DNA of 46,581 nt from Deltaproteobacteria bacterium (GTDB lineage Bacteria > Myxococcota_A > UBA796), in NCBI GenBank assembly GCA_002683315.1, contig NYTD01000284.1, forward strand, positions 1 through 46,581. Reading direction: 5' to 3'. The translations under genes and the position numbers were made by a program. This document shows positions 28,566 to 43,352 of this stretch, piece after piece. Numbering within the stretch: position 1 is the first letter of the stretch; every line of letters begins with the position of its first letter. A model generated the notes under the pieces. It worked only from the letters and a program-made list of their open reading frames with translations. It was not told the DNA's origin and made no database searches.

Positions 28566-30038
28566 TCATGATGTTGCCTTTGGAGCAAAATAAGCACCAA
28601 GGAAACTCGAAGCAGTTTGTGCATTTCCTGCTATTTTTTCCATAGCGGTGAATTGATTATACAAACGATTCTCATACGCTGTTATTCTTTTCTCCCATCG
28701 AGTTACTTGCTTTTGTAGAGCTTTTATCTGATTTGTGGTATTCGTTTGAATCGTTGCTATTGTACCTGTACTTGATGTAGTATACGTTGTTACCAGTGCT
28801 TCCATTGCGGATGAAAAGCTTAGGTCACTTGATTGATCAGCAAACATAGCTTCGATGTCAAGCTGCTGACTGAGTAATGCTGTTTTAAAATTCGCTTCTG
28901 TGAAAACAAGCTTTCCTGTGGAAGAGTTAAACGTAACTCCCATCTTGGATAATGCGTTTATCGGTGAAATAATATTTCCGCTACTATCTGTATTATTTCG
29001 TGAAGTTTCGTTCATTGTGGTTCCATTTGCATTTTCGAAACTTGCATCATCATACACCTTGGATACAGCAGAACGAAGCTGATTTACCATATTACGAACA
29101 TTGGAATCACCAAGAAAAATCCCTTTGGCACCCGTTGTTGCATTATACGTATTATTCGCCTTATAAAAGTCGATAATGTTGTTGTATGCGCTGGTAAAAG
29201 TTTGGATCTTCTCTGAAACACTTGAAATATCCAAAGAAACAGCTACATCTTGTGCTGCAACACCTGCATCTTCTTGATCGCCGAGAGCTGTAATTGTTAG
29301 TCCTGAAACCGCATCGGTAAAGACATTTGTCGCAGATTCTACAGCAACGGAATTAATCGTTGCTTCTGCATTTTGTCCTGTCACACGGGTTACTGATGTA
29401 CCTGTTGTGTTTAACGACGTTCCAGATGTACCTGTAGCAGTGTAATTCAATGAAAAAGTAAAATCTTTTCCTGTCTTTTCTGATAATACAACCAACCGGT
29501 ATGGATTGGTTGAAGCACCTGTGTTTAACACATAAGAAGTAATTCCTGATTTCGCATTGAGTGCGGATGCAAGTGTAGATAAATTATTGTTATCTGCACC
29601 GGAACTAATCGTCATGGTAAAATCACTAAATCCTGCACTTGAATTAAAATTAACTTTAAATGTTCCATCCTTGATTGTTGCTACGCTTGAGGAAACAGTA
29701 TTGAGAATGTGCATATCAGACTTTGCCATCTGTGTAATTTGAACAGAGTATGAACCGGCAATCGCACTACCGGTTGTTGAAGCAGAAAAATAACTGGAAG
29801 CAGCACTAGGGATGGCTGTAGAAAAAGAACGAAAGTTGGAAACTTTCTGAATATCAGTAAGCGACGTTTTTACTGAAGTCATTAGAGTATTTAAAGTGCT
29901 ATACGCAGCATTCTTCGTATTAAGCTGAGATATCTTTGTTTCGAGAAGGGTTTTTGGTTGCGCGGCCGCTTTGGATAACTCTTGTATAAGAGCCGTTGTA
30001 GACAAACCTGAAATAACTCCATCTGTTCGAATCGCCAT
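28566..30038 (-). CDS. fliD: Flagellar filament cap protein FliD
   Basis: 490 aa. N-terminal GLSTTALIQELSKAAAQPKTLLETKISQLNTKNAAYSTLNTLM and C-terminal ..RITAYENRLYNQFTAMEKIAG FliD motifs; S/T/N-rich centre. Confidence 0.92.
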   Translation of the reverse strand: MAIRTDGVISGLSTTALIQELSKAAAQPKTLLETKISQLNTKNAAYSTLNTLMTSVKTSLTDIQKVSNFRSFSTAIPSAASSYFSASTTGSAIAGSYSVQITQMAKSDMHILNTVSSSVATIKDGTFKVNFNSSAGFSDFTMTISSGADNNNLSTLASALNAKSGITSYVLNTGASTNPYRLVVLSEKTGKDFTFSLNYTATGTSGTSLNTTGTSVTRVTGQNAEATINSVAVESATNVFTDAVSGLTITALGDQEDAGVAAQDVAVSLDISSVSEKIQTFTSAYNNIIDFYKANNTYNATTGAKGIFLGDSNVRNMVNQLRSAVSKVYDDASFENANGTTMNETSRNNTDSSGNIISPINALSKMGVTFNSSTGKLVFTEANFKTALLSQQLDIEAMFADQSSDLSFSSAMEALVTTYTTSSTGTIATIQTNTTNQIKALQKQVTRWEKRITAYENRLYNQFTAMEKIAGNAQTASSFLGAYFAPKATS

Positions 30039-30126: not shown

Positions 30127-30966
30127 TTAGCTGAGGAGAGAAATGATGGACTGAGGAATTGCTTTCGCTTGTCCAAGAGCCGCAACACCAGCTTGTTGCA
30201 TGATCTGGTAACGAGTCATGTTCGCTGATTCAGTTGCATAGTCAACATCAAGAATCTGTGATGAAGAGTTTGCAAGATTTTGTGAGTAGTTGCTTGCTTC
30301 GTTCAATGTGCTTTCCAAACGATTTTGGAATGCACCAAGAGTAGAACGTGAACTGTTTACTGACTTGAGTGCTGTATCGATAATATTGATCGCTGTTACA
30401 GACTGAGCAAGAGTAGTAATACCATCAGAAGATATGGAGGAAATTCCCAAAGAACCCCAAGTAGCAGCAACAGAAGCAAGATTAAGAAGAATCTTGTTGT
30501 CAGCATTCTTGTGAATACCTACTTGAAGAGCAAAACCTGTTGTGGATGAGTTCAAAACCTTTGTACGGTTGAAGTTCGCAACAGAAGCAATACGCTTGAT
30601 TTCGTTTGCAAGAGTAGTGAATTCTTTTGAGATCTCTGAACGGTCACCAGAGTTATAAGTCTGGTTGGATCCTTGAACAGCAAGTTCACGCATACGAACA
30701 AGAATGTTGTATACTTCGTTCAATCCACCTTCTGCAGTTTGAATGAGAGAGATACCATCGTTTGCATTTCTCATTGCTTGCTTGAGAGATGTGTTGTCAG
30801 ATGTTTGACGAGTTGCAACAGAAAGTCCTGCAGCGTCATCAGAGGCGCTGTTTACACGAAGACCACTAGAGATCTTGGCCAAAGAACCTGTCAATTTGTT
30901 TTGAGTGCGGTTGAGTGTCTTGATAGAGTTCAACGCTGCCATATTATTTCGTACTGTTAATGCCAT
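30127..30966 (-). CDS. fliC: Flagellin (short, D0/D1-only size)
   Basis: 279 aa. N-terminal MALTVRNNMAALNS..SSGLRVNSASDDAAGLSVA and C-terminal ..TRYQIMQQAGVAALGQAKAIPQSIISLL flagellin motifs; GGAGG SD upstream. Confidence 0.96.
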   Translation of the reverse strand: MALTVRNNMAALNSIKTLNRTQNKLTGSLAKISSGLRVNSASDDAAGLSVATRQTSDNTSLKQAMRNANDGISLIQTAEGGLNEVYNILVRMRELAVQGSNQTYNSGDRSEISKEFTTLANEIKRIASVANFNRTKVLNSSTTGFALQVGIHKNADNKILLNLASVAATWGSLGISSISSDGITTLAQSVTAINIIDTALKSVNSSRSTLGAFQNRLESTLNEASNYSQNLANSSSQILDVDYATESANMTRYQIMQQAGVAALGQAKAIPQSIISLLS

Positions 30967-31488: not shown

Positions 31489-31517
31489 TTGACTGGAGAT
31501 ACTGGTTTGACTATATT
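31489..31517 (+). promoter_or_regulatory. Candidate sigma70-type promoter (TTGACT-N17-TATATT) for the sORF-methyltransferase-rSAM unit
   Basis: -35 TTGACT (31489-31494), exact 17-nt spacer, -10 TATATT (31512-31517), about 55 nt upstream of the sORF ATG. Confidence 0.45.
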
Positions 31518-31574
31518 TATATAGGAAAGAATTATTCTTTTCAAATAACAAATCCTTTTAATTTGGAGAGCATC

Positions 31575-31622
31575 ATGCGCTGGCGTCCTTCTCCTCGCCC
31601 AAAGCCGACACCAACTCGCTAA
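31575..31622 (+). CDS. Unannotated 15-codon sORF encoding MRWRPSPRPKPTPTR
   Basis: ATG 31575 is preceded by GGAGAG (31565-31570, 4-nt spacer); TAA at 31620-31622. It forms a GC-rich island in an AT-rich spacer, 16 nt upstream of a methyltransferase ATG that has no SD of its own. It falls below the track's length cutoff. Confidence 0.35.
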   Translation: MRWRPSPRPKPTPTR

Positions 31623-31638
31623 TATTGTATCTAATATA

Positions 31639-32568
31639 ATGTCTTTGCGATTTGCTTCGGCTTTTGGTTTGCAAACCCCACCTCTACCAAAAGGTCCTCC
31701 ATATCTATGTCTGGATCTAATTGACTGGGTGGGGTTTCCTTTTTGGTTAGAACCATATGATTCTCGATTGATCGATATTCATCATGGAGAACCTGCTCCC
31801 ACTCCTCCTCTTGAAAATTTAGAGGGAATGATTCGATATTGGGAAGAGCATCCTGAATGGATGGACATGCTCAACCCACAATCACCTGTTTTTGAAGACA
31901 AACAAATAGAATCTGCACTCTATCTAGATTTTTGGGGTAATCATGTTCCTGTTGAGAAAAAAGTTCTTGATATAGGTGGAGGAGTAGGCAGGATTACCCA
32001 AATATTACTCCAAAAAAATTGTTCTATTGATCTTGTGGATCCAGATCTACGTAGTCTATGGAGAGCTGTTTCTATGGCTGCGGGTGGGCCTGGATCATTA
32101 GACGTGCATTGGAGTACAGGAGAACATATGCCAGATCTTGGTGTATTTGATTGTGCAGTTGCATGTGAAGTTCTCAATTACGTAGAAGATCCACAAAAAA
32201 TAGTAGATCGCATATATACCAGCCTCAAACCAGGAGGAACTCTACTCATAAGCTTGGAAGCAAGATGGGGTTGGGCTATGTCTTCTGATGTAGCTGCTGG
32301 AAGTATAGAGTCTTTCTTTACAGATGGAATCGTTCATGTCCCACATGATCGTTGGATTCGAACATACACAAGAGAAGATGTTATAAAATTACTGTATCGT
32401 TTTTCTTCTATACAACTTCAACCAAGTCACTATGCTTTTTCTGGTCCTTTTGAGATGGCAACAGGCTTGCTTCCTCTAGAAAAAGCGATAAAGATAGAAA
32501 GGCGGTTTCGCAATCATCCCATTGCCTGCAAGTTAAATAGAGCTTGGATGGTCATTGCACACAAATAG
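31639..32568 (+). CDS. Class I SAM-dependent methyltransferase
   Basis: Motif I VLDIGGGVGRIT, acidic loop DLVDPD, post-I/II ACEVLNYVEDP and LKPGGTLLIS. The 110-aa N-terminal extension is Pro-rich. Confidence 0.85.
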   Translation: MSLRFASAFGLQTPPLPKGPPYLCLDLIDWVGFPFWLEPYDSRLIDIHHGEPAPTPPLENLEGMIRYWEEHPEWMDMLNPQSPVFEDKQIESALYLDFWGNHVPVEKKVLDIGGGVGRITQILLQKNCSIDLVDPDLRSLWRAVSMAAGGPGSLDVHWSTGEHMPDLGVFDCAVACEVLNYVEDPQKIVDRIYTSLKPGGTLLISLEARWGWAMSSDVAAGSIESFFTDGIVHVPHDRWIRTYTREDVIKLLYRFSSIQLQPSHYAFSGPFEMATGLLPLEKAIKIERRFRNHPIACKLNRAWMVIAHK

Positions 32569-32576
32569 GAGCAAAG

Positions 32577-34106
32577 ATGCGTGTTCTTTTGGTTCAACCA
32601 CCACGATGCTATTGGCCATATACATCCGAAGGAGATAATTTTCTCTTGCAGCAAGCACTTCCTGCACTGGCGGCAGTTGCACAACAACGTGGGGATGACA
32701 TAAAAGTCATAGACTGTATGCCACTACATGTAGGATGGAGAACGCTATACGATGAAGTCAAAGCATTTCGTCCTCATGTTATTGGATGTGGTGAAAACCA
32801 TGCATTGTACGCATCCGAAGCTCTTCGTTTTTTTCAACTATGTCGAGAAGCTGCACCAGAAGCGATCAACGTAGCGGGAGGCGGTCACTTCTCCAATCTG
32901 GCCCATCGATATACAAGCAATCCAAACATTGATGTCATATGTATCGGTGAAGGAGAAATCACATTTCATAAGATATTGGAGGCTGTTGAATCAGGAAATC
33001 CTGATTGGCATTCCATTAATGGATTGGCTTTTGACGAGGGGGGCTCCATGGTTCGAACCCAGCCTGCATCCTTAGTCAAAGACCTAGACACCCTTCCTAT
33101 TCCAGCCTATAATCTCATGCCCATGCACCTGTATGGAAAGAGTCGATATTTATTCTCTCCAGGAGGCTCTACTCTTCATCACTCTCGAGGATGTACGTCC
33201 AAATGTAGTTTTTGTGCATGGTGGACCACCATGGCCGACCGAAAAATAGATAGCGATGGGAACGTAAAACTTTCCCCAAGATGGCGATCAAAATCAGTCG
33301 ATCGCATGATGGAAGAAATTGAGATCCTATATTACAAATATGGTAAACGTTCATATGTTTGGGTTGATGAAAGTTGGAATATCGATCCAAAATTTAATTA
33401 TGAATTTTCCCAACGAATGATTCGATCTGGAATGAAAACAAAGTGGATGACGTTTATGAGAGCGGACTGCTTGGTTCGCGATCACAACAAGGGAATTTTG
33501 GCTGATCAGATAAAAGCAGGATTACGACATATTCTTATCGGAGTGGAACGCGCAGAAGATGATAATTTAAAAGGCCTCGATAAACGTTTCTATACCGGAG
33601 GAGTCGCCGAACAAGCGATTCAGATCATGAAAACCCATCATCCGGAAGTATTTATTCAGTGTACATTTATTGTTGGCGTAAAAAATGAAGATCAGGACAC
33701 TCTAAAATTACAAGTAGAACTCGCCAAGAAAATCGACGTTGATTTTCCTGCATTTCATCCGATCACTCCTGTTCCCGGAACACCGATTTATGATGATGCC
33801 ATAAAAAATGGACACATCACAGAAGAAGATTTTGACGATTTTGACTGGATGACACCAGTCCTAAATTCCGATTACCTAACAAAAGATCAAATTGCAGACG
33901 AACTGTATCGCATGAACAAACTGTTTGTGAACAGCAAATGGTTATTCCGCGGATTGTTCTCAAAAGATGATTACAAAAGAGATATGTATATCTGGTTTTC
34001 AAAAGTATCTCTCAAGCAATTTGGCCAAGCTGTGAAGCAACGCATTAATCCTCTTGATGTCTCTCATTATCAAGCCTTGGTCAAACCAGACTGGTATGAC
34101 CACTAA
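32577..34106 (+). CDS. B12-binding-domain radical SAM enzyme (COG1032-type)
   Basis: N-terminal Rossmann-like B12-binding region (RVLLVQPP.. DIKVIDCM.. VIGCGE..), radical-SAM cluster RGCTSKCSFC (CX3CX2C), downstream GLRHILIGVERA. ATG 32577 is preferred because AGGAG lies upstream, overlapping the methyltransferase stop. Confidence 0.88.
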   Translation: MRVLLVQPPRCYWPYTSEGDNFLLQQALPALAAVAQQRGDDIKVIDCMPLHVGWRTLYDEVKAFRPHVIGCGENHALYASEALRFFQLCREAAPEAINVAGGGHFSNLAHRYTSNPNIDVICIGEGEITFHKILEAVESGNPDWHSINGLAFDEGGSMVRTQPASLVKDLDTLPIPAYNLMPMHLYGKSRYLFSPGGSTLHHSRGCTSKCSFCAWWTTMADRKIDSDGNVKLSPRWRSKSVDRMMEEIEILYYKYGKRSYVWVDESWNIDPKFNYEFSQRMIRSGMKTKWMTFMRADCLVRDHNKGILADQIKAGLRHILIGVERAEDDNLKGLDKRFYTGGVAEQAIQIMKTHHPEVFIQCTFIVGVKNEDQDTLKLQVELAKKIDVDFPAFHPITPVPGTPIYDDAIKNGHITEEDFDDFDWMTPVLNSDYLTKDQIADELYRMNKLFVNSKWLFRGLFSKDDYKRDMYIWFSKVSLKQFGQAVKQRINPLDVSHYQALVKPDWYDH

Positions 34107-34117
34107 ACAAGAAGTCA

Positions 34118-34170
34118 TGAATTTGTTATGTAACAAAATGTAGTACATTCGTAACAAATTCACGTTTTTT
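34118..34170 (+). terminator. Rho-independent terminator after the first rSAM gene
   Basis: Arms tgaatttgtta (34118-34128) and taacaaattca (34152-34162) are exact reverse complements, with an inner aatgta/tacatt pairing. The hairpin is followed by cg + T6 (34165-34170) and starts 12 nt after the stop. Confidence 0.65.
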
Positions 34171-34260: not shown

Positions 34261-36030
34261 ATGTCTGTTTATATCCTACTCAGCTTTATTTTATTAGGGG
34301 CCTGTGATGCCCCAAAAGACAAATCTACTACAACAAAAGAAAATATTCCGTCCTTGAAAGAAGCTTCCCAAAAGATTGATCAACCCAAAGAAACGTCCAA
34401 GTCTATTTCTAGAGCAATATTATCTCAAGACAAAATCGATTTCTATAAAAAAGAATTCCCCAACGCCGTAGGTTTTAACAAACGAGATATCCCTGCAGAT
34501 TTCCTTTCTGAAATAGATAAAAGCAATAGCTCATACTACGAGGTTCTCGACCAAAACAATACCGTTATCGGCTATCTTCGTGACTTTATGGGCCCTGTCA
34601 CCAGCGAGGAAAATTGTGCTTGTAATCCATTGTCATTGACACTCGCATACAACACAGATTTTTCGCTAAAAAATCTTATCTCTGTTGCTCCCCTGCAAAA
34701 ATATGGGCATGAAGCACTCACAGAAGAAGAACATAAAAAGATGGTCTCCATTGTACAAAATCCAAGTCCAGATCTTCTTTCTCTACAAGCACCACAAGAC
34801 ATGATCGATGGTTCTACTGGAGCAACGAGTCTTACATATAAAGATAAAGTTGTAGACAAAGCTGGTTATTCTTCTTGGCGGCTTGCACGTTTATCCATGG
34901 AAACTGCTCAGATTTTACAAGGTGCACCAATACAACGAGACATGGACCGATTGCAGAAAAAAATGCAAGGAGCCGACACACCCAAAATCCAAAGAGAGAG
35001 ACTTGTAGAATTTATTCCGACAGCAGAGAGCGACTATCTCAAGCAGCGAGCCATATTCATTCTTTCAGAACTCTATTTACAAGGCTTGAGTATTGGTGAA
35101 AAAACAGATTCACAAGTTGAGTCCATTATCTTAAATGCCAATCTGGGAGCCATGCAAGAGGCTGAGCTTCTCATAAACCTCTGTCTTGCATTTGTGGAAC
35201 AAAAAGCAGCACCAGATTTTGTCTCAAAATGTATAAAAAAATTAGATTCCAATCCCCAAAAGGAAGGTTTTTCCGCGCAAATAGCACTACTAAAAGGGAT
35301 GGAACTATTCGAAAAAGGAAAAGGAAAAGAAGCCATACCTCTTCTGGAAAAAGGCCTTGCAGTTGGATCTATTTCTCCAGAATTAAGACAAAAGATGGCC
35401 TTGGTTTATAAAGAGCTCAATGAAACCAAGAAATCTTGTGCACAGCTAGAAGAAATATATGTGGAAGCGCCCAAATGGCCCAATCTAGAATCGATGTTGC
35501 AAGAGTGCGGTGACACAAAGAAAATCACGAAAAAACTCGACTCTAAAAGAAAGAAAAAGTTACTATCCAGTCGATTAGATGCTCCCCAAAAAGCCTCAAT
35601 TATGAGCCTAAAAGATGAAGAAGGGAAACAAAAATCGATCGATCTAAGCTCTACTGGGAACAAAACAGTCATCGTATTTTTTGCCACATGGTGTCCACAC
35701 TGTCAAAAAGAAATGCCAAGACTGGTTGAGTTTTACAACACGTTACAGCTATCACCTCAAAAGAATGAGATTGAACTTTTGGCAATCCGAGCCTCAACAG
35801 CGAGAGAAACCCAAAGTTTCGCTGATTTCAAAAAGCAGTATGGAATTCCATTTCCTATTATGACAGATGAAGGAATCGCATTTGAGAGTTTTGCTTCGAA
35901 GCAAGGAGTTAGCCCAGGATTTCCGATGATGGCGATCGCAAATGCAAAAGGAGAAGTTGTGTACTTTCTTTCCCATGGAGATCACAACGACACATCAAAA
36001 GAACTCTTCTGGCTGTTGGAATCCTTATAA
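34261..36030 (+). CDS. Lipoprotein with FMN-bind-like domain (DxxTGAT flavinylation motif), helical middle region and C-terminal TlpA/ResA-type thioredoxin domain
   Basis: Lipobox LLGAC (Cys15). IDGSTGATS at 34807-34827 resembles the ApbE flavinylation motif of RnfG/NqrC/NosR FMN_bind domains. C-terminal VIVFFATWCPHCQKEMP (WCPHC at 35689-35703) and the TlpA-like ..GFPMMAIANAKGEVV. Confidence 0.7.
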   Translation: MSVYILLSFILLGACDAPKDKSTTTKENIPSLKEASQKIDQPKETSKSISRAILSQDKIDFYKKEFPNAVGFNKRDIPADFLSEIDKSNSSYYEVLDQNNTVIGYLRDFMGPVTSEENCACNPLSLTLAYNTDFSLKNLISVAPLQKYGHEALTEEEHKKMVSIVQNPSPDLLSLQAPQDMIDGSTGATSLTYKDKVVDKAGYSSWRLARLSMETAQILQGAPIQRDMDRLQKKMQGADTPKIQRERLVEFIPTAESDYLKQRAIFILSELYLQGLSIGEKTDSQVESIILNANLGAMQEAELLINLCLAFVEQKAAPDFVSKCIKKLDSNPQKEGFSAQIALLKGMELFEKGKGKEAIPLLEKGLAVGSISPELRQKMALVYKELNETKKSCAQLEEIYVEAPKWPNLESMLQECGDTKKITKKLDSKRKKKLLSSRLDAPQKASIMSLKDEEGKQKSIDLSSTGNKTVIVFFATWCPHCQKEMPRLVEFYNTLQLSPQKNEIELLAIRASTARETQSFADFKKQYGIPFPIMTDEGIAFESFASKQGVSPGFPMMAIANAKGEVVYFLSHGDHNDTSKELFWLLESL

Positions 36031-36142: not shown

Positions 36143-37003
36143 ATGTTTATGAAAAATAAAAATGATTTTTGGCCAGTAGTTGTCACATTTTTGGTTTTCG
36201 GCCTACAGTTCTCTGCTCTTTTTCTCCCTCTTTTATGGTCGTTCCTGGCATCTTTAATTGTTTTGTATGCCTGTGGAACCACTGCTGCATTTCAACATCA
36301 TCACGGTCACTGTTCTGTGTTCAAAAAAAAGAGACTAAACCAAATTTTGGATAGTGCTATGAGTTTTCAGTCTGGTATTACTCCCTATGCATGGATTCTC
36401 CATCATAATATCGGACATCATGGGAACTATATGAATCAGTATCCTCAACAACAAGAAGAGAAGATAGATGCTTCCAATTGGACCAGAGAAGATGGTTCTG
36501 TCATGGGTAGATGGGAATATGTTTGGTATAACCGTGTTCGAATGCACGAACGATGTGCAAAAGTCGGAAAGAAGGCGCGTAAGATCTTTACAAAATATGT
36601 TTTATTTCGCAGAATCCATTTCGCTCTCGTTGCTATTTTTCTCAGTTTGGGGCTTTTTGTTGGTGGATGGATGGGGTTACTCTCGGCAATCATTCACTTT
36701 GTAGTAATTCCACAAATGATGGTTCTCTTTGTCTTCGAAACAACCTACGACCACCATTCTGGGTTATTTACCGATAACAAACATGAAGCATCGCGAAATA
36801 TATTGGGGACTTTTTACAATACGGCTCGATTAAACTTGGGATACCATACCGCACACCATATAAAACCAGGTTTGCACTGGTCTGAACTACCAGAATACCA
36901 TGCATCTATAGAATCCAATATCCCAGAGGATCTTATTGACAGCGACTATAATTTTTTCAGCGCGATGGGAAAAACTATGTTTGCTACAAAAGCGTCAAAA
37001 TAA
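36143..37003 (+). CDS. Membrane fatty-acid desaturase/hydroxylase-family di-iron protein
   Basis: Three His boxes (FQHHHGH, LHHNIGHH, YHTAHH) interleaved with about 4 TM helices; 286 aa; GGAGA upstream of the ATG. Confidence 0.8.
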   Translation: MFMKNKNDFWPVVVTFLVFGLQFSALFLPLLWSFLASLIVLYACGTTAAFQHHHGHCSVFKKKRLNQILDSAMSFQSGITPYAWILHHNIGHHGNYMNQYPQQQEEKIDASNWTREDGSVMGRWEYVWYNRVRMHERCAKVGKKARKIFTKYVLFRRIHFALVAIFLSLGLFVGGWMGLLSAIIHFVVIPQMMVLFVFETTYDHHSGLFTDNKHEASRNILGTFYNTARLNLGYHTAHHIKPGLHWSELPEYHASIESNIPEDLIDSDYNFFSAMGKTMFATKASK

Positions 37004-37026: not shown

Positions 37027-38505
37027 TTATACTGTAGCCCATTTTCCAATTCCCACTTTCGGGACAGCTCTACGAATTGTAGATTTAATGATTTCACCAA
37101 GTACTTGTGCGCCACCGGCCATTTCAAGTAACTCGGCACGTCCTTCCGACTTAGAAAGTTTGCGACGAATTAGGTCTGGGCGCAGATAGAACTTCATATA
37201 CGCTTTGGTTCGATATGCTCGAAGCTGCTCTGCAGAAAAAGTCTCTGTCTCAAGCTGTGGAATCGCACCACCACCATCAATGGTATACTGCTTCCAAAAA
37301 TCTCCATCCACATAGCCTCTTTCTTGTGCAACACGGTATAAATCTGTTGCTGGCAGTGCTGTTGCCACCGAAAATGAAGCCCAATCTAACCCCAATCCAG
37401 AAGCAAAATCAATCATGTCTTCTACATCTTGTGGAGCTGCATCGTAATATCCAACCATGAAGTATCCTCGTGTGTCGACTCCCTCTTCACGGCAAATTCG
37501 AAATGCTTCAATGGTTTGTTCTCTGGTGATCTGTTTATTCATAATTTTCAACACACGATCAGTTCCCGCTTCTACCCCCATATGAATAGATCGCAGACCT
37601 GCGCGCTTCAAAAGACGAACAATCTCTCGGTCTACAGTATCGACACGAGCTCGGATATTAAACTTTACTTTTAAATTTCTGCGTAATATCTCTTCAGAGA
37701 AATTACGCATTCGTTTTTTGCCGATTGTGAAGGTCTCATCAAAAAATACAATCTCCCTGATTCCATAGTTGTCAACCAAATACTCCATCTCATCTACAAC
37801 CAGCTTTACATCTCGAAACCGCAACTTCTCAGAATATACCTGTGAACAATAGCCACAATGCCATGGACAACCTCTCGTTGTCACCATCGTTGCGAAAGGG
37901 CGAAGAAGTGTAAGGCAATGATAATCACCAAGAGGCATCAAATCCCATGCAGTCATCGGATACTTGTTGATATCACGACTCAAAGGTCTTGGAGGATTCT
38001 TAATAACATCTCCATTAGACAATCGAGCCACTGTTCCTTGTATGTCTGTCCATTCAGACCCTGACTCTATTCGGTCACAAATTTCAAGCAGTGTGTCTTC
38101 TCCATCTCCAACAACTGCGAGATCAAAACACTCCCAAGATAACGATTCTTCTGCATAAATGCTGAGCTGTGGTCCCCCTACAACAATCAGGGTCTCTGGA
38201 GATGTCGCGCGAACCATTTGTGCTATTTCAATGACAGCGGGCCATCCCAATGTCTTTGCTGTCAATGCAACAATGTGTGGATCATAGTCTCGTACACGAC
38301 TTGCAGCATCTTTGGGGTACATGTTCTCTACATGTAAATCCACCAAGTCGACATCATAGCCATTTTGACGAATCCAAGCAGCAAGGGTTCCCAAAGCAAG
38401 AGACGGAAAAATACCGAGCTTCTCTGCCGCTTTCTTAGATAGAGGCTGCTGATCGGCAGCTTCATGATACTTGATGAACATGACACGGGTATTTTTTTTC
38501 GACAT
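37027..38505 (-). CDS. B12-binding-domain radical SAM enzyme (second copy, COG1032-type)
   Basis: N-terminal B12-binding-like region (RVMFIKY.. YDVDLVDLH.. IVALTAKT..), TTRGCPWHCGYC (CX3CX2C), GLRSIHMGVEAG. ATG 38505 is preferred because GAGGA lies upstream; the track start 38556 adds a hydrophobic SD-less extension. Confidence 0.88.
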   Translation of the reverse strand: MSKKNTRVMFIKYHEAADQQPLSKKAAEKLGIFPSLALGTLAAWIRQNGYDVDLVDLHVENMYPKDAASRVRDYDPHIVALTAKTLGWPAVIEIAQMVRATSPETLIVVGGPQLSIYAEESLSWECFDLAVVGDGEDTLLEICDRIESGSEWTDIQGTVARLSNGDVIKNPPRPLSRDINKYPMTAWDLMPLGDYHCLTLLRPFATMVTTRGCPWHCGYCSQVYSEKLRFRDVKLVVDEMEYLVDNYGIREIVFFDETFTIGKKRMRNFSEEILRRNLKVKFNIRARVDTVDREIVRLLKRAGLRSIHMGVEAGTDRVLKIMNKQITREQTIEAFRICREEGVDTRGYFMVGYYDAAPQDVEDMIDFASGLGLDWASFSVATALPATDLYRVAQERGYVDGDFWKQYTIDGGGAIPQLETETFSAEQLRAYRTKAYMKFYLRPDLIRRKLSKSEGRAELLEMAGGAQVLGEIIKSTIRRAVPKVGIGKWATV

Positions 38506-38670
38506 ATAGATCCTCATAGAACAAAAGAATTTTATCACAATGTAACCAAATGTCAAAAGCCATTTGTACTGATATAGAACTACTTTTGTATGTTTTTTGG
38601 GTCGTATTGACTTTTTCTACCAAACGGAATAGATTTTTTTGAATTTTGGCGTTTCTTTTGAGGGTCTTCT

Positions 38671-40620
38671 ATGTTCAAAAACCTATTAAAAAGCAGTGTA
38701 ACCATTGCACTAATGGTCATCACAGTTGTACTGTTGTCCATCACCATCGCAATGCTCAACAACACTGAGCACAATCTAATTAAAGATAACAAATTATTGA
38801 AGTCTCGATTGGAAAAAGCTGAACTTGCTGCAGCTGGTGCACAAAATACAAGCCGTGATTCTGAAATCAAAGGGCCAAATGCAAAGTATGCCCTTGCTTT
38901 CACCGACCCACAAAATCTACTCAGTATCGATCCCGTGGAATGGATTCCTGAAAACGCCACCAAAGGCGGTATGCTAAAAAGCTACTTGGGCTCTGATCCA
39001 AAAGGACTAAATTTTCTCACGCAAAATGGTTCAGATGTAAGCGCGCTGCAAGGATACATAGGAATTAGTCTTGTAGGTCGCCACAAAGAAGACACATCCA
39101 AATACAGGCCGGAACTCGCCTATCATATGGCACGTACAGAAGACTTCCTCACCTACACATTTCGTATACGCGACGATATCTTTTGGCACAAGCCTACACT
39201 CGACGAAACCAATCCTCAATACAAATGGCTTTTCGAAGGAAATACTTGTAGAGATGGACATTTTATCAATGAGCGTTGTCGCGTAACTGCGCACGACATT
39301 GTGTATATGATGGACATGATGATGAATAATCAGGTTGCAGGAGCTGCTCCCGGTCGTTCATACTATTCCAACCTCAAAGAATATAAAGCAATCGACGACT
39401 TCACATTTCGAGTATCCTTCTCTAAGAAAACGCAGACACAAGATCGAATGGTTCGAGGAATATTCCCCATGCCTGAGTTTTTGTATGCATACGATGAAGA
39501 TGGGGAACGATACGATGACTCCATTGCAGGAACCAAATTCGAGGCGCACTGGTATGATCCAAACACCATTGGTGCAGGTCCTTATCGATTTATATCCTTT
39601 GACCCAAGTGTAAAAATTGAATTAGAACGAGATCCTCGATACCCACTTGGTGGAAACGCATACAGCAAAATACTCTTTCAAATTGTCAACGAAGATCTCC
39701 AACGCGTACGAAAGTTCAAGAACGAAGAATTGCACTACACTGGTCTATCTCCTTCTCAATATCGCACGGAGGTTCTGGAAGCAGATGAAAAATCTCCGTT
39801 CAAAAACGGAACCTTTGGATCTGGAGAATTTTGGTCTCATACCTACTTTTACATCGGTTGGAACAACCAATCCCCATTATTTTCAGACAAACGTGTTCGA
39901 AATGCTATGAGTCATGCTTTTAATGCTGATCTACTCCTTGAAGAAGTCATGATGGGACTTGGGAAACGGTGTACGGGCCCAATGCCCGCATTTTTACCTC
40001 AGTACGACCAAACCCTTCCTCCTATTCCTTTCGATCTAGAAAAGGCCAAAAATCTTCTTGAAGAATCAGGATGGATAGACAATGATGGAAATGGTATCCG
40101 CGAAAAGGTTATCGAAGGAACCAAAACAGAATTTGAATTTAGTCTGACCATTTACGGCTCTTCGAAAGAGTACAAAACCATTGGCGATATCTACAAAGAA
40201 GACTTGGCCAAAATTGGTGTTAAAATGAATGTTCAACCACAAGAGTGGTCCAACCTCCTCAAAAAAGTTGATTCGAAAGAGTTTGATGCTGTCACACTGG
40301 CATGGGTATCCAGTCCAGATGTAGACTTTCGTCAGATATGGCACTCAAGCGAAGCTGACAAGCCGCAATCCTCCAACTACATCTCATTTCGAAGTAAAGC
40401 GGCAGACAAGATTATTGAAGAACTCGAAGAAGAATTCGATGTCGAAAAGCGTCATGCGCTCGCAAAGCAGTTTCACAAGCTTATCTATGATGAGCAACCC
40501 TATACGTTCTTCTATACACGTCAAAATAAGTACTACTGGAATAAAGAACTTGAAAACGTGAAAGCACAGCTCACACGACCTTACCTTAATGCACGCGCTT
40601 GGTATTTAAAGGGAGAATAG
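38671..40620 (+). CDS. ABC transporter substrate-binding protein, family 5 (peptide/Opp/Yej type), membrane-anchored
   Basis: 649 aa; N-terminal uncleaved-looking TM anchor (VTIALMVITVVLLSITIAML) plus a coiled segment. The size and body are typical of SBP_bac_5, and it sits adjacent to OppB/OppC-type permeases; GAGGG SD upstream. Confidence 0.75.
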   Translation: MFKNLLKSSVTIALMVITVVLLSITIAMLNNTEHNLIKDNKLLKSRLEKAELAAAGAQNTSRDSEIKGPNAKYALAFTDPQNLLSIDPVEWIPENATKGGMLKSYLGSDPKGLNFLTQNGSDVSALQGYIGISLVGRHKEDTSKYRPELAYHMARTEDFLTYTFRIRDDIFWHKPTLDETNPQYKWLFEGNTCRDGHFINERCRVTAHDIVYMMDMMMNNQVAGAAPGRSYYSNLKEYKAIDDFTFRVSFSKKTQTQDRMVRGIFPMPEFLYAYDEDGERYDDSIAGTKFEAHWYDPNTIGAGPYRFISFDPSVKIELERDPRYPLGGNAYSKILFQIVNEDLQRVRKFKNEELHYTGLSPSQYRTEVLEADEKSPFKNGTFGSGEFWSHTYFYIGWNNQSPLFSDKRVRNAMSHAFNADLLLEEVMMGLGKRCTGPMPAFLPQYDQTLPPIPFDLEKAKNLLEESGWIDNDGNGIREKVIEGTKTEFEFSLTIYGSSKEYKTIGDIYKEDLAKIGVKMNVQPQEWSNLLKKVDSKEFDAVTLAWVSSPDVDFRQIWHSSEADKPQSSNYISFRSKAADKIIEELEEEFDVEKRHALAKQFHKLIYDEQPYTFFYTRQNKYYWNKELENVKAQLTRPYLNARAWYLKGE

Positions 40621-40623
40621 AGC

Positions 40624-42105
40624 ATGCTGTTTTATATTATCAAACGGATGTTGCTCATTATTCCAACGTTCCTCGCCATATCTCTTATCGTCTTTGCGAT
40701 CGTAAACTTTGCACCGGGAAATCCTGGAGGCAGACAAATAGGATCTGAAGGAGGGCAACAGGCCAATACAGGAGAGCAAAGAGAATCGTATCGAATATTT
40801 AAAGAACAATTCAATCTCGACAAACCCGTTATTCTAAATTTTCGATACAATCTGACAAAAGACGAGGTTGTCGATGTTTTGGCCAAAGTGCTTAATCCTG
40901 TAATTGAGATAGATGGGAAAGAAGAGAAAGAATATGGACTTGGAGAGCAAATCGAAAGCCAAGAATATCTAGAAAATCTAGGAAGATATGCAGTCCCTTC
41001 TTTGATGGAGATCCTAAACACACATCCGGAAGTAGAATACAGAGCATTAGCCAGTCAACGATTAACCATTAATGCACGACAAAGATTACAAGGTGAGTTT
41101 CGCAAGGATCTGACCAAAGCACAGCGAGAAACCAATAAAAAGATTTCAGATGAAACAGCAAGCTTCAAAGGCCAATACTTTCTTGCTTTATCTCCAGAAG
41201 ATGCAGAAGATGCAGAATCCAAGACCGAAGAAGAAGTCAAAGAGTTTTGGAATCCATGGTACGAACAGAACAAAACAGACTGGGAGTATTCTACTGGAGA
41301 CATCTTCTCCATAACCTTTACCGACACACGATTTGCAAAATACTGGTATAACCTATCTCAGCTAAATTTTGGGGTCTCTCACCGTGACAAACGTCCTGTT
41401 CTAGAAACGGTTCTCAGCAAGCTCAAGTACTCACTCACCCTTGCCGTAACATCCGTTTTTCTGGCCTACCTTATTTCACTTCCTCTTGGGATATGGTCCG
41501 CTGTGAATCACAATAGCAAGGCAGATCGAGCTGTAACAGTGGTGTTGTTCATGCTGTATTCTTTGCCTTCTTTCTTTGTTGGGGTTGTACTTCTAAATCT
41601 TCTCACTGTGGAATATAGAATATTTCCCACGGCAGGTTTTGAAAGCCTAAATGCAAGTGAAATGACAACACTTGAATATATAAAAGATGTCATGTGGCAT
41701 GTTTTCTTGCCTATTTGTTGTATGACATATGCATCCTTAGCTGCGTTGTCTCGATATGCCAAAACGGGTCTATTGGATATTATCAATGCTGACTTTATAC
41801 GTACCGCACGTGCAAAAGGTCTTCCAGAAAGTGTTGTCATTATCAAACATGCTGCCCGAAATGGAATGATTCCCATCTTGACACTCATCGCAACACTACT
41901 TCCAGTTCTCATCGGTGGCTCTATTGTAATAGAACAGATCTTCGGAATCCCCGGTATGGGACGTTATGGATTCGAAGCGATTCTTACTCGAGACTATAAT
42001 GTTGTCATGGCCATATTACTTATCTCAAGCCTACTCACCCTCATCGGCATGCTTATCAGTGACATACTGTATGCAATTGTCGACCCACGTATTACTTTTG
42101 ACTAG
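40624..42105 (+). CDS. OppB/DppB/YejB-type ABC permease with a large (about 170 aa) extracytoplasmic insertion
   Basis: N-terminal IIKRMLLIIPTFLAISLIVFAIVNFAPGNP and the EAA loop FIRTARAKGLPESVVIIKHAARNGMIPILT are classic. 493 aa compared with the usual 310 or so. Confidence 0.9.
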   Translation: MLFYIIKRMLLIIPTFLAISLIVFAIVNFAPGNPGGRQIGSEGGQQANTGEQRESYRIFKEQFNLDKPVILNFRYNLTKDEVVDVLAKVLNPVIEIDGKEEKEYGLGEQIESQEYLENLGRYAVPSLMEILNTHPEVEYRALASQRLTINARQRLQGEFRKDLTKAQRETNKKISDETASFKGQYFLALSPEDAEDAESKTEEEVKEFWNPWYEQNKTDWEYSTGDIFSITFTDTRFAKYWYNLSQLNFGVSHRDKRPVLETVLSKLKYSLTLAVTSVFLAYLISLPLGIWSAVNHNSKADRAVTVVLFMLYSLPSFFVGVVLLNLLTVEYRIFPTAGFESLNASEMTTLEYIKDVMWHVFLPICCMTYASLAALSRYAKTGLLDIINADFIRTARAKGLPESVVIIKHAARNGMIPILTLIATLLPVLIGGSIVIEQIFGIPGMGRYGFEAILTRDYNVVMAILLISSLLTLIGMLISDILYAIVDPRITFD

Positions 42106-42113
42106 AGGCCTCC

Positions 42114-43352
42114 ATGTCTGAATCGAACAAAAAGATTGTACAAGAAAGCGATGACCTGACATATGGAGATATCGTTTGGGGACAGTTCAAGAAAAATAAC
42201 CTCGCGATGTTTGCCTTGTATGGCCTGAGTATTCTTATTTTTATCGCTGTATTTTGTCCTATACTGGCTTCTGATCGACCTTTTATTTGGGTAGAGAACG
42301 GTCAAACCAGCTACCCTTGGTTCACCTCGCTTTTTGACCGAAATTATTACGAAAACTCTGTCGATATATTCTTCAATCTTGCTATGGTGCTCAGCATTCC
42401 TTTAACAATTATTTGGGTTGTTGTTGCTCGAGTTATTAGAACAAAACATTCTGAAAAAAGAGCATACAGAAAAGTCTTATACCGTTTTAATATAGGACTT
42501 TTTGCGGCTTTTATTGCACTATTTCTGGGTATTAGCACCCAAAAATATGAAGAGCCATACAAACAATACTATGAAGAATACACCCAAGCCAAAGAGGACA
42601 ACCAAAAAGATATCTCGGCAGTATTTACTCCCATTCCATATGGGTATCGGAAAACTGGATTCAAATCTCTTGACGGCATATCTGGAGAACATTGGCTCGG
42701 TGTAGATCAATCCACACGCGATGTTGCTGTACGGATGCTTTATGGAACAAGAATAGCGCTATCTATCGGAATCATAGCTGTATCCATTTATGTAACCATC
42801 GGAGTTATAATCGGTTCTACGGCTGGATTTTTTGGGGGCTGGACCGATATTTTGATCGTACGCTTTATCGAAATCTTCATGTCTATTCCAAGTCTTTTTG
42901 TGATCTTAGCTCTCCTTGCTTTTGTGGAAAAACCATCGATTTTCCACATCATGGCAGTAATCGGATGCCTACGCTGGACCGGTGTTGCTCGACTTACACG
43001 CGGTGAATTTCTCCGATTGAGAAATCTTGATTTTGTAAGTTCTGCCATCGCACTTGGCTTCTCGACAAGAAGAATTATTTTCCAACATGTCCTACCCAAT
43101 GCCCTAGGACCGGTTTTGGTCAATGCCACCTTTGGTGTTGCTGCCGCCATCCTCACAGAAAGTACGCTTTCTTTTCTCGGCTTGGGTGATGTATCTGTTC
43201 CTTCATGGGGTCAAACTTTGAATGAAGGATATAGTACAGGGGCTTGGCACCTTATTTTGGCACCTGGATTTGCTATCTTTTTCACCGTCTCTTTACTCAA
43301 TCTCGTTGGAGAAGGATTCCGAGACGCTCTTGATCCAAAAATGAGGAAGTAG
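42114..43352 (+). CDS. OppC/DppC/YejE-type ABC permease with extra N-terminal TM segments
   Basis: EHWLGVDQSTRDVAVRMLYGTRIALSIG and FVSSAIALGFSTRRIIFQHVLPNALGPVLV motifs. 412 aa compared with the usual 300 or so. Confidence 0.9.
   Translation: MSESNKKIVQESDDLTYGDIVWGQFKKNNLAMFALYGLSILIFIAVFCPILASDRPFIWVENGQTSYPWFTSLFDRNYYENSVDIFFNLAMVLSIPLTIIWVVVARVIRTKHSEKRAYRKVLYRFNIGLFAAFIALFLGISTQKYEEPYKQYYEEYTQAKEDNQKDISAVFTPIPYGYRKTGFKSLDGISGEHWLGVDQSTRDVAVRMLYGTRIALSIGIIAVSIYVTIGVIIGSTAGFFGGWTDILIVRFIEIFMSIPSLFVILALLAFVEKPSIFHIMAVIGCLRWTGVARLTRGEFLRLRNLDFVSSAIALGFSTRRIIFQHVLPNALGPVLVNATFGVAAAILTESTLSFLGLGDVSVPSWGQTLNEGYSTGAWHLILAPGFAIFFTVSLLNLVGEGFRDALDPKMRK

Follow-up and report, generated by a model that had tools for sequence, protein, structure and literature searches.

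The 46,581-nt stretch analyzed here (hereafter the window; contig NYTD01000284.1 of the Deltaproteobacteria bacterium assembly GCA_002683315.1) carries a 15-codon small open reading frame (sORF) just upstream of genes for a class I S-adenosylmethionine (SAM)-dependent methyltransferase and a class B, B12-binding radical SAM (rSAM) enzyme. We have very little doubt that this micro-gene is genuine and has a functional link to the two enzymes, and we regard it as probable, if well short of certain, that its proline- and arginine-rich product is a methylation substrate of both. The peptide would then be a leaderless micro-precursor akin to those of peptides that are synthesized ribosomally and modified posttranslationally (RiPPs), with the enzymes recognizing the core itself. 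As judged by sequence comparison, the sORF recurs in clearly more than 100 genomes of uncultured Myxococcota-type bacteria, where it lies beside the methyltransferase gene and usually the rSAM gene as well.

Conservation of the Peptide and Its Linkage to the Methyltransferase

In the window the sORF reads ATG CGC TGG CGT CCT TCT CCT CGC CCA AAG CCG ACA CCA ACT CGC TAA and encodes MRWRPSPRPKPTPTR, which comprises five X-Pro pairs and holds the conserved core WRPSPRPKP at residues 3 to 11. Direct inspection bears out the coordinates, peptide, (X-Pro)5 pattern and Shine-Dalgarno (SD) sequence reported in an initial annotation of the window, as well as the GC-rich island that it described within an AT-rich spacer (60% G+C in the sORF vs. 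28% in the intergenic stretch 5′ of it and 12.5% in the 16-nt spacer that follows). Within the window by itself the sORF is not statistically special: 21 other ATG-initiated frames of 10 to 30 codons have GGAG or GAGG 4 to 14 nt upstream, although it is the only ATG frame of 8 to 45 codons with at least 30% proline. Since the window alone does not rise above chance, the reality of the sORF rests on comparative data. Contigs with an identical methyltransferase (L178–L180; metagenome assemblies) show a gap of ~200 nt between the upstream DUF4190 gene and the methyltransferase, with the sORF uncalled; it is systematically overlooked by gene annotation and makes a clear example of a conserved gene invisible to standard procedures.

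From the enzyme side, the methyltransferase has 182 homologues that are annotated only generically, and a scan of one genome per species yielded 58 loci, all from metagenome-assembled genomes labeled Myxococcota, Deltaproteobacteria or Oligoflexia (some of these labels are evidently wrong). After the true methyltransferase start had been located in each locus and the flanks translated, an M-x-W-R-P-S-P-R-P-K-P-... peptide was found to adjoin the methyltransferase in 49 of the 56 loci with upstream sequence, the window included, across 39 to 75% G+C and down to ~45% methyltransferase identity. The 27-nt core occurs in 46 distinct DNA versions, in which all four proline codons are used and serine is encoded by both TCN and AGC, and its mean pairwise difference is 0.051 at codon positions 1 and 2 vs. 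0.617 at position 3. GGAG or GGAGG precedes the ATG by 5 to 8 nt in nearly all 49 of these genome-locus sORFs, in both orientations, and the antisense frame of the sORF shows no conservation. The freely varying third positions, together with the conserved ATG, SD and stop, show purifying selection on a translated peptide and not on an RNA or DNA element. By the comparison that the initial annotation had proposed, it is thus the peptide, and not the DNA, that is conserved beside homologous methyltransferases.

Constraint on the peptide is severe. The tryptophan, the first arginine and four prolines are invariant across 58 distinct single-core peptides, and the tolerated core changes are serine to threonine or alanine, the second arginine to alanine (once), and lysine to arginine, glutamine or threonine. 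Peptide length ranges from 12 to 23 residues, and 55 of the 58 have only the methionine and one variable residue before the core; that residue is almost always large (N, R, Q, K, E, H or I), so that by the methionine-aminopeptidase rule the initiator methionine is probably kept. Mean identity is 71% for the rSAM vs. 51% for the methyltransferase, both being exceeded in conservation by the peptide core. In neither the whole window nor 16 related loci did any Rfam family attain its gathering score, and Pfam and NCBIfam gave no match for the 21- to 23-residue peptide variants at E values up to 10; an upstream GxGxGRGxGRQ element, considered as an RNA motif, turned out to be the antisense strand of an inverted sORF. 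When a 41-residue triple-core version served as query against 5.8 billion nonredundant protein sequences, only two entries carried the motif.

The linkage also holds when the search starts from the peptide. A back-translated pattern (ATG NNN TGG CGN CCN WSN CCN CGN CCN MRN CC) matched 119 metagenome contigs and yielded 85 credible sORFs, that is, short and SD-preceded frames with the right motif, the remaining 34 matches being out-of-frame or long GC-rich ORFs. A methyltransferase lies in the same locus in 72 of the 85, six sORFs are too near a contig end to be judged, and seven are orphans. With 49 of 56 from the enzyme side and 72 of 85 from the peptide side, the association of peptide and methyltransferase is reciprocal. 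The rSAM gene follows directly 3′ of the methyltransferase in 89 of 133 loci.

A Self-Contained Micro-Gene in Either Orientation

In 31 of the 49 genome loci the sORF lies upstream of and codirectional with the enzymes; in the other 18, and in 20 of the 72 metagenome loci, the opposite strand encodes it. Inverted sORFs lie ~100 to 130 nt ATG-to-ATG from the methyltransferase, each with an SD of its own, and point at the 3′ end of lpxC. A hairpin plus T-run within 110 nt of the stop, mostly 16 to 35 nt past it, accompanies 48 of 124 sORFs in both orientations vs. 19 of 620 control windows (3%), and the regions downstream of the sORF fold with a z score below −2 in 29 of 49 cases. The spacing between the sORF stop and the first codon of the methyltransferase ranges from 0 to ~190 nt across loci.

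In six loci (L061, L097, L100, L124, L129 and L139) the core is present in triplicate, as MN(WRPSPRPKPGPK[AS])x3, and one database protein, P0121, is a double-core version. These head-to-tail 13-residue units, WRPSPRPKPGPK[AS], differ at synonymous sites within one gene, so that each copy is kept by selection, and the multi-core loci feature a TTGAC...GATA promoter-like element 5′ of the SD. Multi-core carriers are high-GC relatives (one example lies around position 5420 of L097, on the minus strand), and the methyltransferase beside them lacks the first ~55 residues of the window enzyme. Taken together, these sequence features mark the sORF as a self-contained micro-gene that has an SD and, in most lineages, also a terminator to itself.

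Two Generic Enzymes as Partners

The methyltransferase AUG at 31639 lies 16 nt past the sORF stop and has no purine-rich SD, as the initial annotation had it, and the start is correct given that the N-terminus (MSL...) is kept in an alignment of 27 homologues. The N-terminal ~100 residues are proline-rich and family-specific, the AlphaFold2 model scores a predicted local distance difference test value of 90.5, and the family is strongly acidic (median net charge −19). By PDB sequence search, AlphaFold models and Foldseek its best fold match is the tRNA methyltransferase CmoM, others being ToxA and BamL.

The rSAM combines an N-terminal B12-binding domain with a radical SAM core whose CxxxCxxC motif is present as GCTSKCSFC, which places it in class B. 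It scores under every NCBIfam cut-off (best BchE, 182 bits vs. 481 needed), with BchE, HpnJ and HpnR as profile neighbors and AprD4, TsrM, CysS, MgmA, TokK and OxsB closest by fold; among the matches listed, its homologue search gave in-family proteins only, at no less than 63% identity, and hence no informative outgroup. Its true start is the ATG at 32577, 8 nt past the methyltransferase TAG (32566–32568), and the resulting 509-residue product is also the version of the gene callers on contigs with an identical methyltransferase. A TTG at 32544, inside the methyltransferase gene, had been proposed as start by a mechanical ORF list and is ruled out by the conserved 509-residue product and by an AGGAG at 32567–32571. 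The two genes therefore do not overlap, and of the overlap described in the initial annotation only that between the rSAM's AGGAG and the methyltransferase stop codon stands. The hairpin plus T6 terminator at the end of the unit, also described there, is well supported (−19.8 kcal/mol, z = −3.9, with none of 200 shuffles folding as well).

The Peptide as a Putative Substrate

Linkage in either orientation and the tandem copies make a substrate of both enzymes the most likely role for the peptide. The enzymes would methylate it, and the tryptophan, the first arginine and the prolines, where no substitutions are seen, are candidate modification or recognition sites. Invariance of the core can be explained by the lack of a leader, which would leave the enzymes to recognize the core directly, as in the leaderless biarylitides. 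Peptide and methyltransferase are complementary in charge (pI 12 vs. the family median of −19). For B12-dependent rSAM enzymes there are precedents on each type of residue: proline in bottromycin, the C5 of arginine in methyl-coenzyme M reductase (by Mmp10) and the C2 of tryptophan (by TsrM). C-methylation of peptide residues, proline included, also occurs in the clavusporins (PMC10849626). The near-invariant core, the ruvCAB-lpxC housekeeping context and the lack of a conserved protease or exporter further suggest that the product would act on a conserved intracellular target and not as a diversifying weapon.

Several findings weigh against this interpretation. Both enzymes can be placed only in generic classes by sequence and fold, from which their substrate is not readable. 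The 12- to 23-residue peptides have no leader or follower, and Pfam and NCBIfam detect no domain of the RiPP recognition element type. Of the hallmarks of a RiPP, an encoded precursor gene and clustered tailoring genes are present and a removable leader or follower is not, and RiPP cores are not usually so invariant. Across loci the module has no protease, exporter, immunity gene or further tailoring gene conserved with it. The association itself has exceptions: seven of the 56 methyltransferase loci have no detectable sORF, seven sORFs have no enzyme gene within sequence of at least 1.5 kb on each side, and in 17 of 133 methyltransferase loci no rSAM gene is adjacent despite room for one. On the evidence of peptide conservation, reciprocal linkage, joint movement of the module and double and triple cores, we nevertheless retain the initial annotation's idea of a precursor or core peptide, with its modification as a putative step.

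The exceptions show some regularities of their own. Five of the orphans (L072:2461, L113:7638, L156:2108, L159:2171 and L172:5169) encode MNWRPSPRPRPLPK[RH]PR and two (L078:2091 and L171:6953) encode MKWRPSPRPKPGNK; their neighbors, Ig-like, VWA and GDSL proteins, are uninformative. An sORF and methyltransferase without an adjacent rSAM are seen in L018, L019, L023 and L058, and also in L131, L098, L116, L064 and L051. The first four are exactly the loci whose peptide has a longer N-terminal extension before the tryptophan (MINAPQW..., MVRTPHW..., MNKLSNRGW...), and in L023 a 506-residue thioredoxin-domain protein then follows the methyltransferase.

Alternative Readings

Could the sORF be no gene at all, but a chance frame or a fortuitously open stretch of a conserved RNA or DNA element? 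The 21 comparable SD-preceded short ORFs that the window holds by chance, and the failure of every gene caller to report the sORF, would be in keeping with this; the codon-position pattern and the ATG, SD and stop conserved across genomes of 39 to 75% G+C refute it, no Rfam family matches, and pattern matches in viral contigs are all chance, out-of-frame or long GC-rich ORFs with no M-x-W start among them, so that we assign this explanation a negligible probability. Another reading is a leader peptide acting in cis, in which arrest or attenuation, dependent on elongation factor P (EF-P) or otherwise, gates expression of the methyltransferase and rSAM. Strong amino acid conservation is typical of arrest peptides, the sORF is upstream and codirectional in the 31 genome loci above, often with a hairpin in between, and in the window's lineage the methyltransferase has no SD and an AUG inside a predicted helix that translation of the sORF would open. 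The inverted copies, however, have the same SD and terminator and only the 3′ end of lpxC ahead of them, and thus lack a downstream gene that they could regulate. It takes diprolyl or triprolyl motifs for translation to depend on EF-P, and consecutive prolines are absent from the window peptide and most homologues, a minority having PP after the core (...KPPGNK, ...KPPKK). Inversion, an own terminator, tandem cores, variable spacing, orphan copies and the missing PP motifs together exclude a cis-acting or arrest leader as the general function. The EF-P-sensitive stalling leader that the initial annotation offered as its second reading is accordingly abandoned, and we consider any leader function of this kind very improbable.

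A role other than that of a substrate deserves more attention. The peptide could be a functional small protein or a regulator of the enzymes, such as a cationic ribosome-, nucleic acid- or envelope-binding peptide or an enzyme activator, with the enzymes themselves acting on a lipid, a small molecule or RNA; we judge this possible, though rather unlikely. It would be in line with the generic nature of the enzymes (CmoM as best fold of the methyltransferase, BchE, HpnJ and HpnR near the rSAM), with lpxC as the usual neighbor, with the lack of a leader, protease or exporter, and with those loci where sORF and methyltransferase occur without an adjacent rSAM. Yet linkage is to the methyltransferase and not to lpxC, the window module having left lpxC and still kept its sORF; tandem multi-core genes and an acidic methyltransferase suit a substrate better; and a proline-rich peptide of 15 residues lacks the fold that an enzyme subunit would need. 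As a special case of the RiPP-like reading, the product could also be a secreted weapon, an exported antibiotic of predatory Myxococcota-type bacteria resembling the proline-rich antimicrobial peptides (PrAMPs), which appears improbable. Its composition (33 to 35% proline, 33 to 35% arginine plus lysine), an RP-SPRP motif as in drosocin and the Myxococcota or Oligoflexia labels of the relatives would agree with such a role; the peptide resembles PrAMPs in composition only (alignment z no higher than 2.3 vs. shuffles), and homology to them was rejected. No conserved exporter, immunity gene or signal peptide accompanies the sORF, the module sits in housekeeping synteny, and its core is invariant whereas weapons usually diversify.

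The substrate reading could be extended to a lineage-wide housekeeping micropeptide instead of a secondary metabolite, C-methylated and binding some universally conserved machine inside the cell (DnaK, a release factor or the exit tunnel of the ribosome, for instance) so as to tune the producer's own physiology, a proposal that we regard as speculative and on present evidence unlikely. The methyl groups added by the rSAM and the methyltransferase would in that case set the affinity for the target. If true, it would provide the first endogenous bacterial counterpart of the animal proline-rich peptides, as well as a leaderless, multi-core RiPP class recognized by its core alone.

Probable Translational Coupling in the Low-GC Lineage of the Window

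Next to its general layout as a self-contained gene, the sORF has a particular arrangement in the window and its low-GC relatives (L120, L163, L068, L077, L099 and L001), in which the sORF terminator and an SD for the methyltransferase are both missing and the stop-to-start spacing runs from a TAATG overlap (L099) up to 18 nt; in a higher-GC relative, L017, the spacing is 0 nt. The promoter-like element upstream scores 10 of 12 in a consensus scan of the window. Such hexamer pairs are no commoner there than in shuffles (12 found vs. 9.7 expected), and the element noted in the initial annotation gains its credibility from conservation and not from scan frequency, with TCTTGACT...CTATATT retained in five diverged relatives (WIN, L120, L163, L068 and L077) while the flanks diverge. 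These conserved −35 and −10 hexamers also point to a single transcript in the low-GC lineage. The gene 5′ of the sORF, on the minus strand, encodes a small DUF4190 membrane protein and, from the sequence, starts at ATG 31437 behind AAGGAG.

The segment from 31524 to 31670 folds with a z score of −5.1, and a predicted long-range helix would join sORF codons 8 to 12 to methyltransferase codons 7 to 10, enclosing the methyltransferase AUG along with the spacer and the sORF stop. The 4 to 5 closest relatives retain this helix, with one compensatory G-C to A-U change in L163 and L068; this modest, lineage-specific evidence would fit translational coupling, in which ribosomes ending the sORF open the helix and reinitiate at the methyltransferase AUG. 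In the window's lineage translation of the methyltransferase thus probably depends on that of the sORF. We envisage that the low-GC lineage lost the sORF terminator and joined the sORF to the enzyme operon. Coupled translation or reinitiation, as proposed in the initial annotation, would therefore apply to the low-GC lineage of the window (no SD, 0 to 18 nt, helix) and not generally across loci; it is a local arrangement and not the reason for the peptide's existence. As a separate observation, the SD of the sORF (GGAGA; window 31565–31594, plus strand) is predicted to pair with the sORF's own Ser-Pro codons (UCUCC), which may reflect self-occlusion or mere composition, CCN-rich coding being anti-SD-like; no covariation was seen.

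Relation to Known Systems

The putative system most resembles, by analogy, a leaderless micro-precursor of the biarylitide type combined with methylation chemistry of the clavusporin or bottromycin type. Bottromycin, from Streptomyces, is made with B12-rSAM C-methyltransferases, including one acting on proline, and a class I O-methyltransferase, and its precursor has no N-terminal leader and a follower of ~35 residues; YcaO enzymes, hydrolases, a P450 and an exporter complete the cluster. The module described here likewise pairs genes for a B12-rSAM and a class I methyltransferase with a peptide devoid of an N-terminal leader, but consists of only one enzyme of each kind, with no YcaO, follower, hydrolases, P450 or exporter, and the rSAM does not match any bottromycin-type family model of NCBIfam. 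The proteusin or polytheonamide type is defined by a long nitrile-hydratase-like leader and a radical SAM epimerase; no leader and no further conserved genes were found here. The analogy to bottromycin and polytheonamide drawn in the initial annotation hence extends to the enzyme classes and not to the cluster features.

The clavusporins (mpc cluster, Streptomyces) are RiPPs with a physiological and not an antibiotic role, methylated at unactivated carbons by a B12-rSAM and widespread within one phylum; their 39-residue precursor has a leader and an acidic follower, its methylation is leader-dependent, its core is hydrophobic and variable, and DUF5825, an S9 peptidase and a transporter act as its partners (PMC10849626). 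Both systems associate a short ribosomal peptide with a class B rSAM, the methylation being putative here, whereas the sORF peptide is cationic, invariant and leaderless and has a class I methyltransferase as its constant partner. By Pfam, the conserved module is devoid of DUF5825, peptidase and transporter alike. The peptide is thus no member of the bottromycin, proteusin or clavusporin families, whose hallmarks were sought and not found. Among known RiPPs the biarylitides and myxarylin have the smallest precursors, encoded by leaderless micro-genes just a few codons long that escape gene callers; the biarylitide precursor has five residues (MxYxH), and a cytochrome P450 that recognizes the core directly makes its biaryl cross-link (PMC12951456). 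The sORF is a caller-missed, leaderless micro-gene with a conserved core motif as well, but has a methyltransferase and a B12-rSAM in place of the P450, and occurs with tandem cores. To our knowledge, there are no tandem-core biarylitide genes.

Arrest and attenuation leaders (TnaC, SecM, SpeFL and ErmCL; trp and his) act in cis, codirectional with and directly upstream of the gene they regulate. The sORF shares their shortness and strong conservation, and in the window's lineage its translation probably controls the next start codon; it departs from them in being inverted in about a third of loci, in having its own terminator, in occurring alone and in its tandem repeats. PrAMPs (drosocin, apidaecin, oncocin and Bac7) are secreted animal peptides that are cut from prepropeptides and bind the ribosomal exit tunnel or DnaK. 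They have in common with the sORF product a length of 15 to 20 residues, about one-third proline, about one-third basic residues and PRP-type motifs, whereas the latter is a bacterial product made without signal or pro-region and genetically linked to methylating enzymes. PADLOC returned only a generic methyltransferase-domain match to mad2 and nothing for the rSAM, which does not amount to a defense system, and a literature search with the motif string, keyword combinations and a B12-rSAM review gave no description of the system.

Should the peptide be a substrate, it would define an undescribed RiPP-like family with a leaderless precursor of 12 to 23 residues, an invariant 9-residue core and tandem versions, partnered solely by a class I methyltransferase and a class B rSAM enzyme in a housekeeping neighborhood. 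It would also offer a minimal and tractable substrate for B12-rSAM enzymes, which are hard to assign and assay. The carriers have been found only as metagenome-assembled genomes, and their sORF raises the question of what role a near-invariant, cationic, polyproline-type peptide has inside the cell.

Genomic Neighborhood

The features of the window discussed here are compiled in Table 1.

Table 1. Position and description of the module and of other features in the window
Feature	Position	Strand	Description
FliD	28566–30038	−	Pfam assignment
Flagellin	30127–30966	−	Pfam assignment
Promoter-like element	31489–31517	+	−35 TTGACT at 31489–31494, 17-nt spacer, −10 TATATT at 31512–31517
sORF Shine-Dalgarno sequence	31565–31570	+	GGAGAG, 4 nt 5′ of the ATG
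sORF	31575–31622	+	ATG 31575 to TAA 31620–31622; 15 codons plus TAA; product MRWRPSPRPKPTPTR
Predicted long-range helix	31597–31608 paired with 31657–31668	+	Would enclose the spacer together with the sORF stop and methyltransferase AUG on either side of it
A+T-rich spacer	31623–31638	+	16 nt, no SD; putative junction for translational coupling or reinitiation
Class I SAM-dependent methyltransferase	31639–32568	+	309 residues; Pfam Methyltransf_23/12/11/25
B12-binding radical SAM enzyme (class B)	32577–34106	+	509 residues; Pfam PF02310 (B12-binding) and PF04055 (Radical_SAM)
Intrinsic terminator	34118–34170	+	Hairpin plus T6; ends the three-gene unit
Thioredoxin-like protein	34261–36030	+	589 residues; C-terminal AhpC/TSA-redoxin domain; directly past the module terminator
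Fatty-acid desaturase gene	36143–37003	+	Beside the second B12-binding rSAM gene
Second B12-binding radical SAM gene	37027–38556	−	27% identical to the first
Opp/Nik-type ABC importer	38671–43352	+	SBP_bac_5 protein plus two permeases with long N-terminal extensions

The usual gene order across loci is ruvC-ruvA-ruvB-(DUF192)-lpxC-sORF-methyltransferase-rSAM. In the window the module instead adjoins flagellar genes, away from lpxC, with its three genes still together; having been kept intact in this new neighborhood, it argues for linkage among the three genes and not to lpxC. Neither the second B12-rSAM, given its low identity to the first, nor the Opp-type ABC transporter is conserved with the module elsewhere, and both were discarded as parts of the system, which also removes the link between peptide and transporter suggested in the initial annotation. 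The second B12-rSAM and the desaturase may form a lipid-modifying pair. The thioredoxin-like protein recalls the thioredoxin-domain gene of L023, though clustering by BLAST did not group the two. With ~40% G+C the window stands apart from most relatives (57 to 75%), and it carries flagellar genes though its closest relatives are labeled Myxococcota, a phylum that is not usually flagellated.

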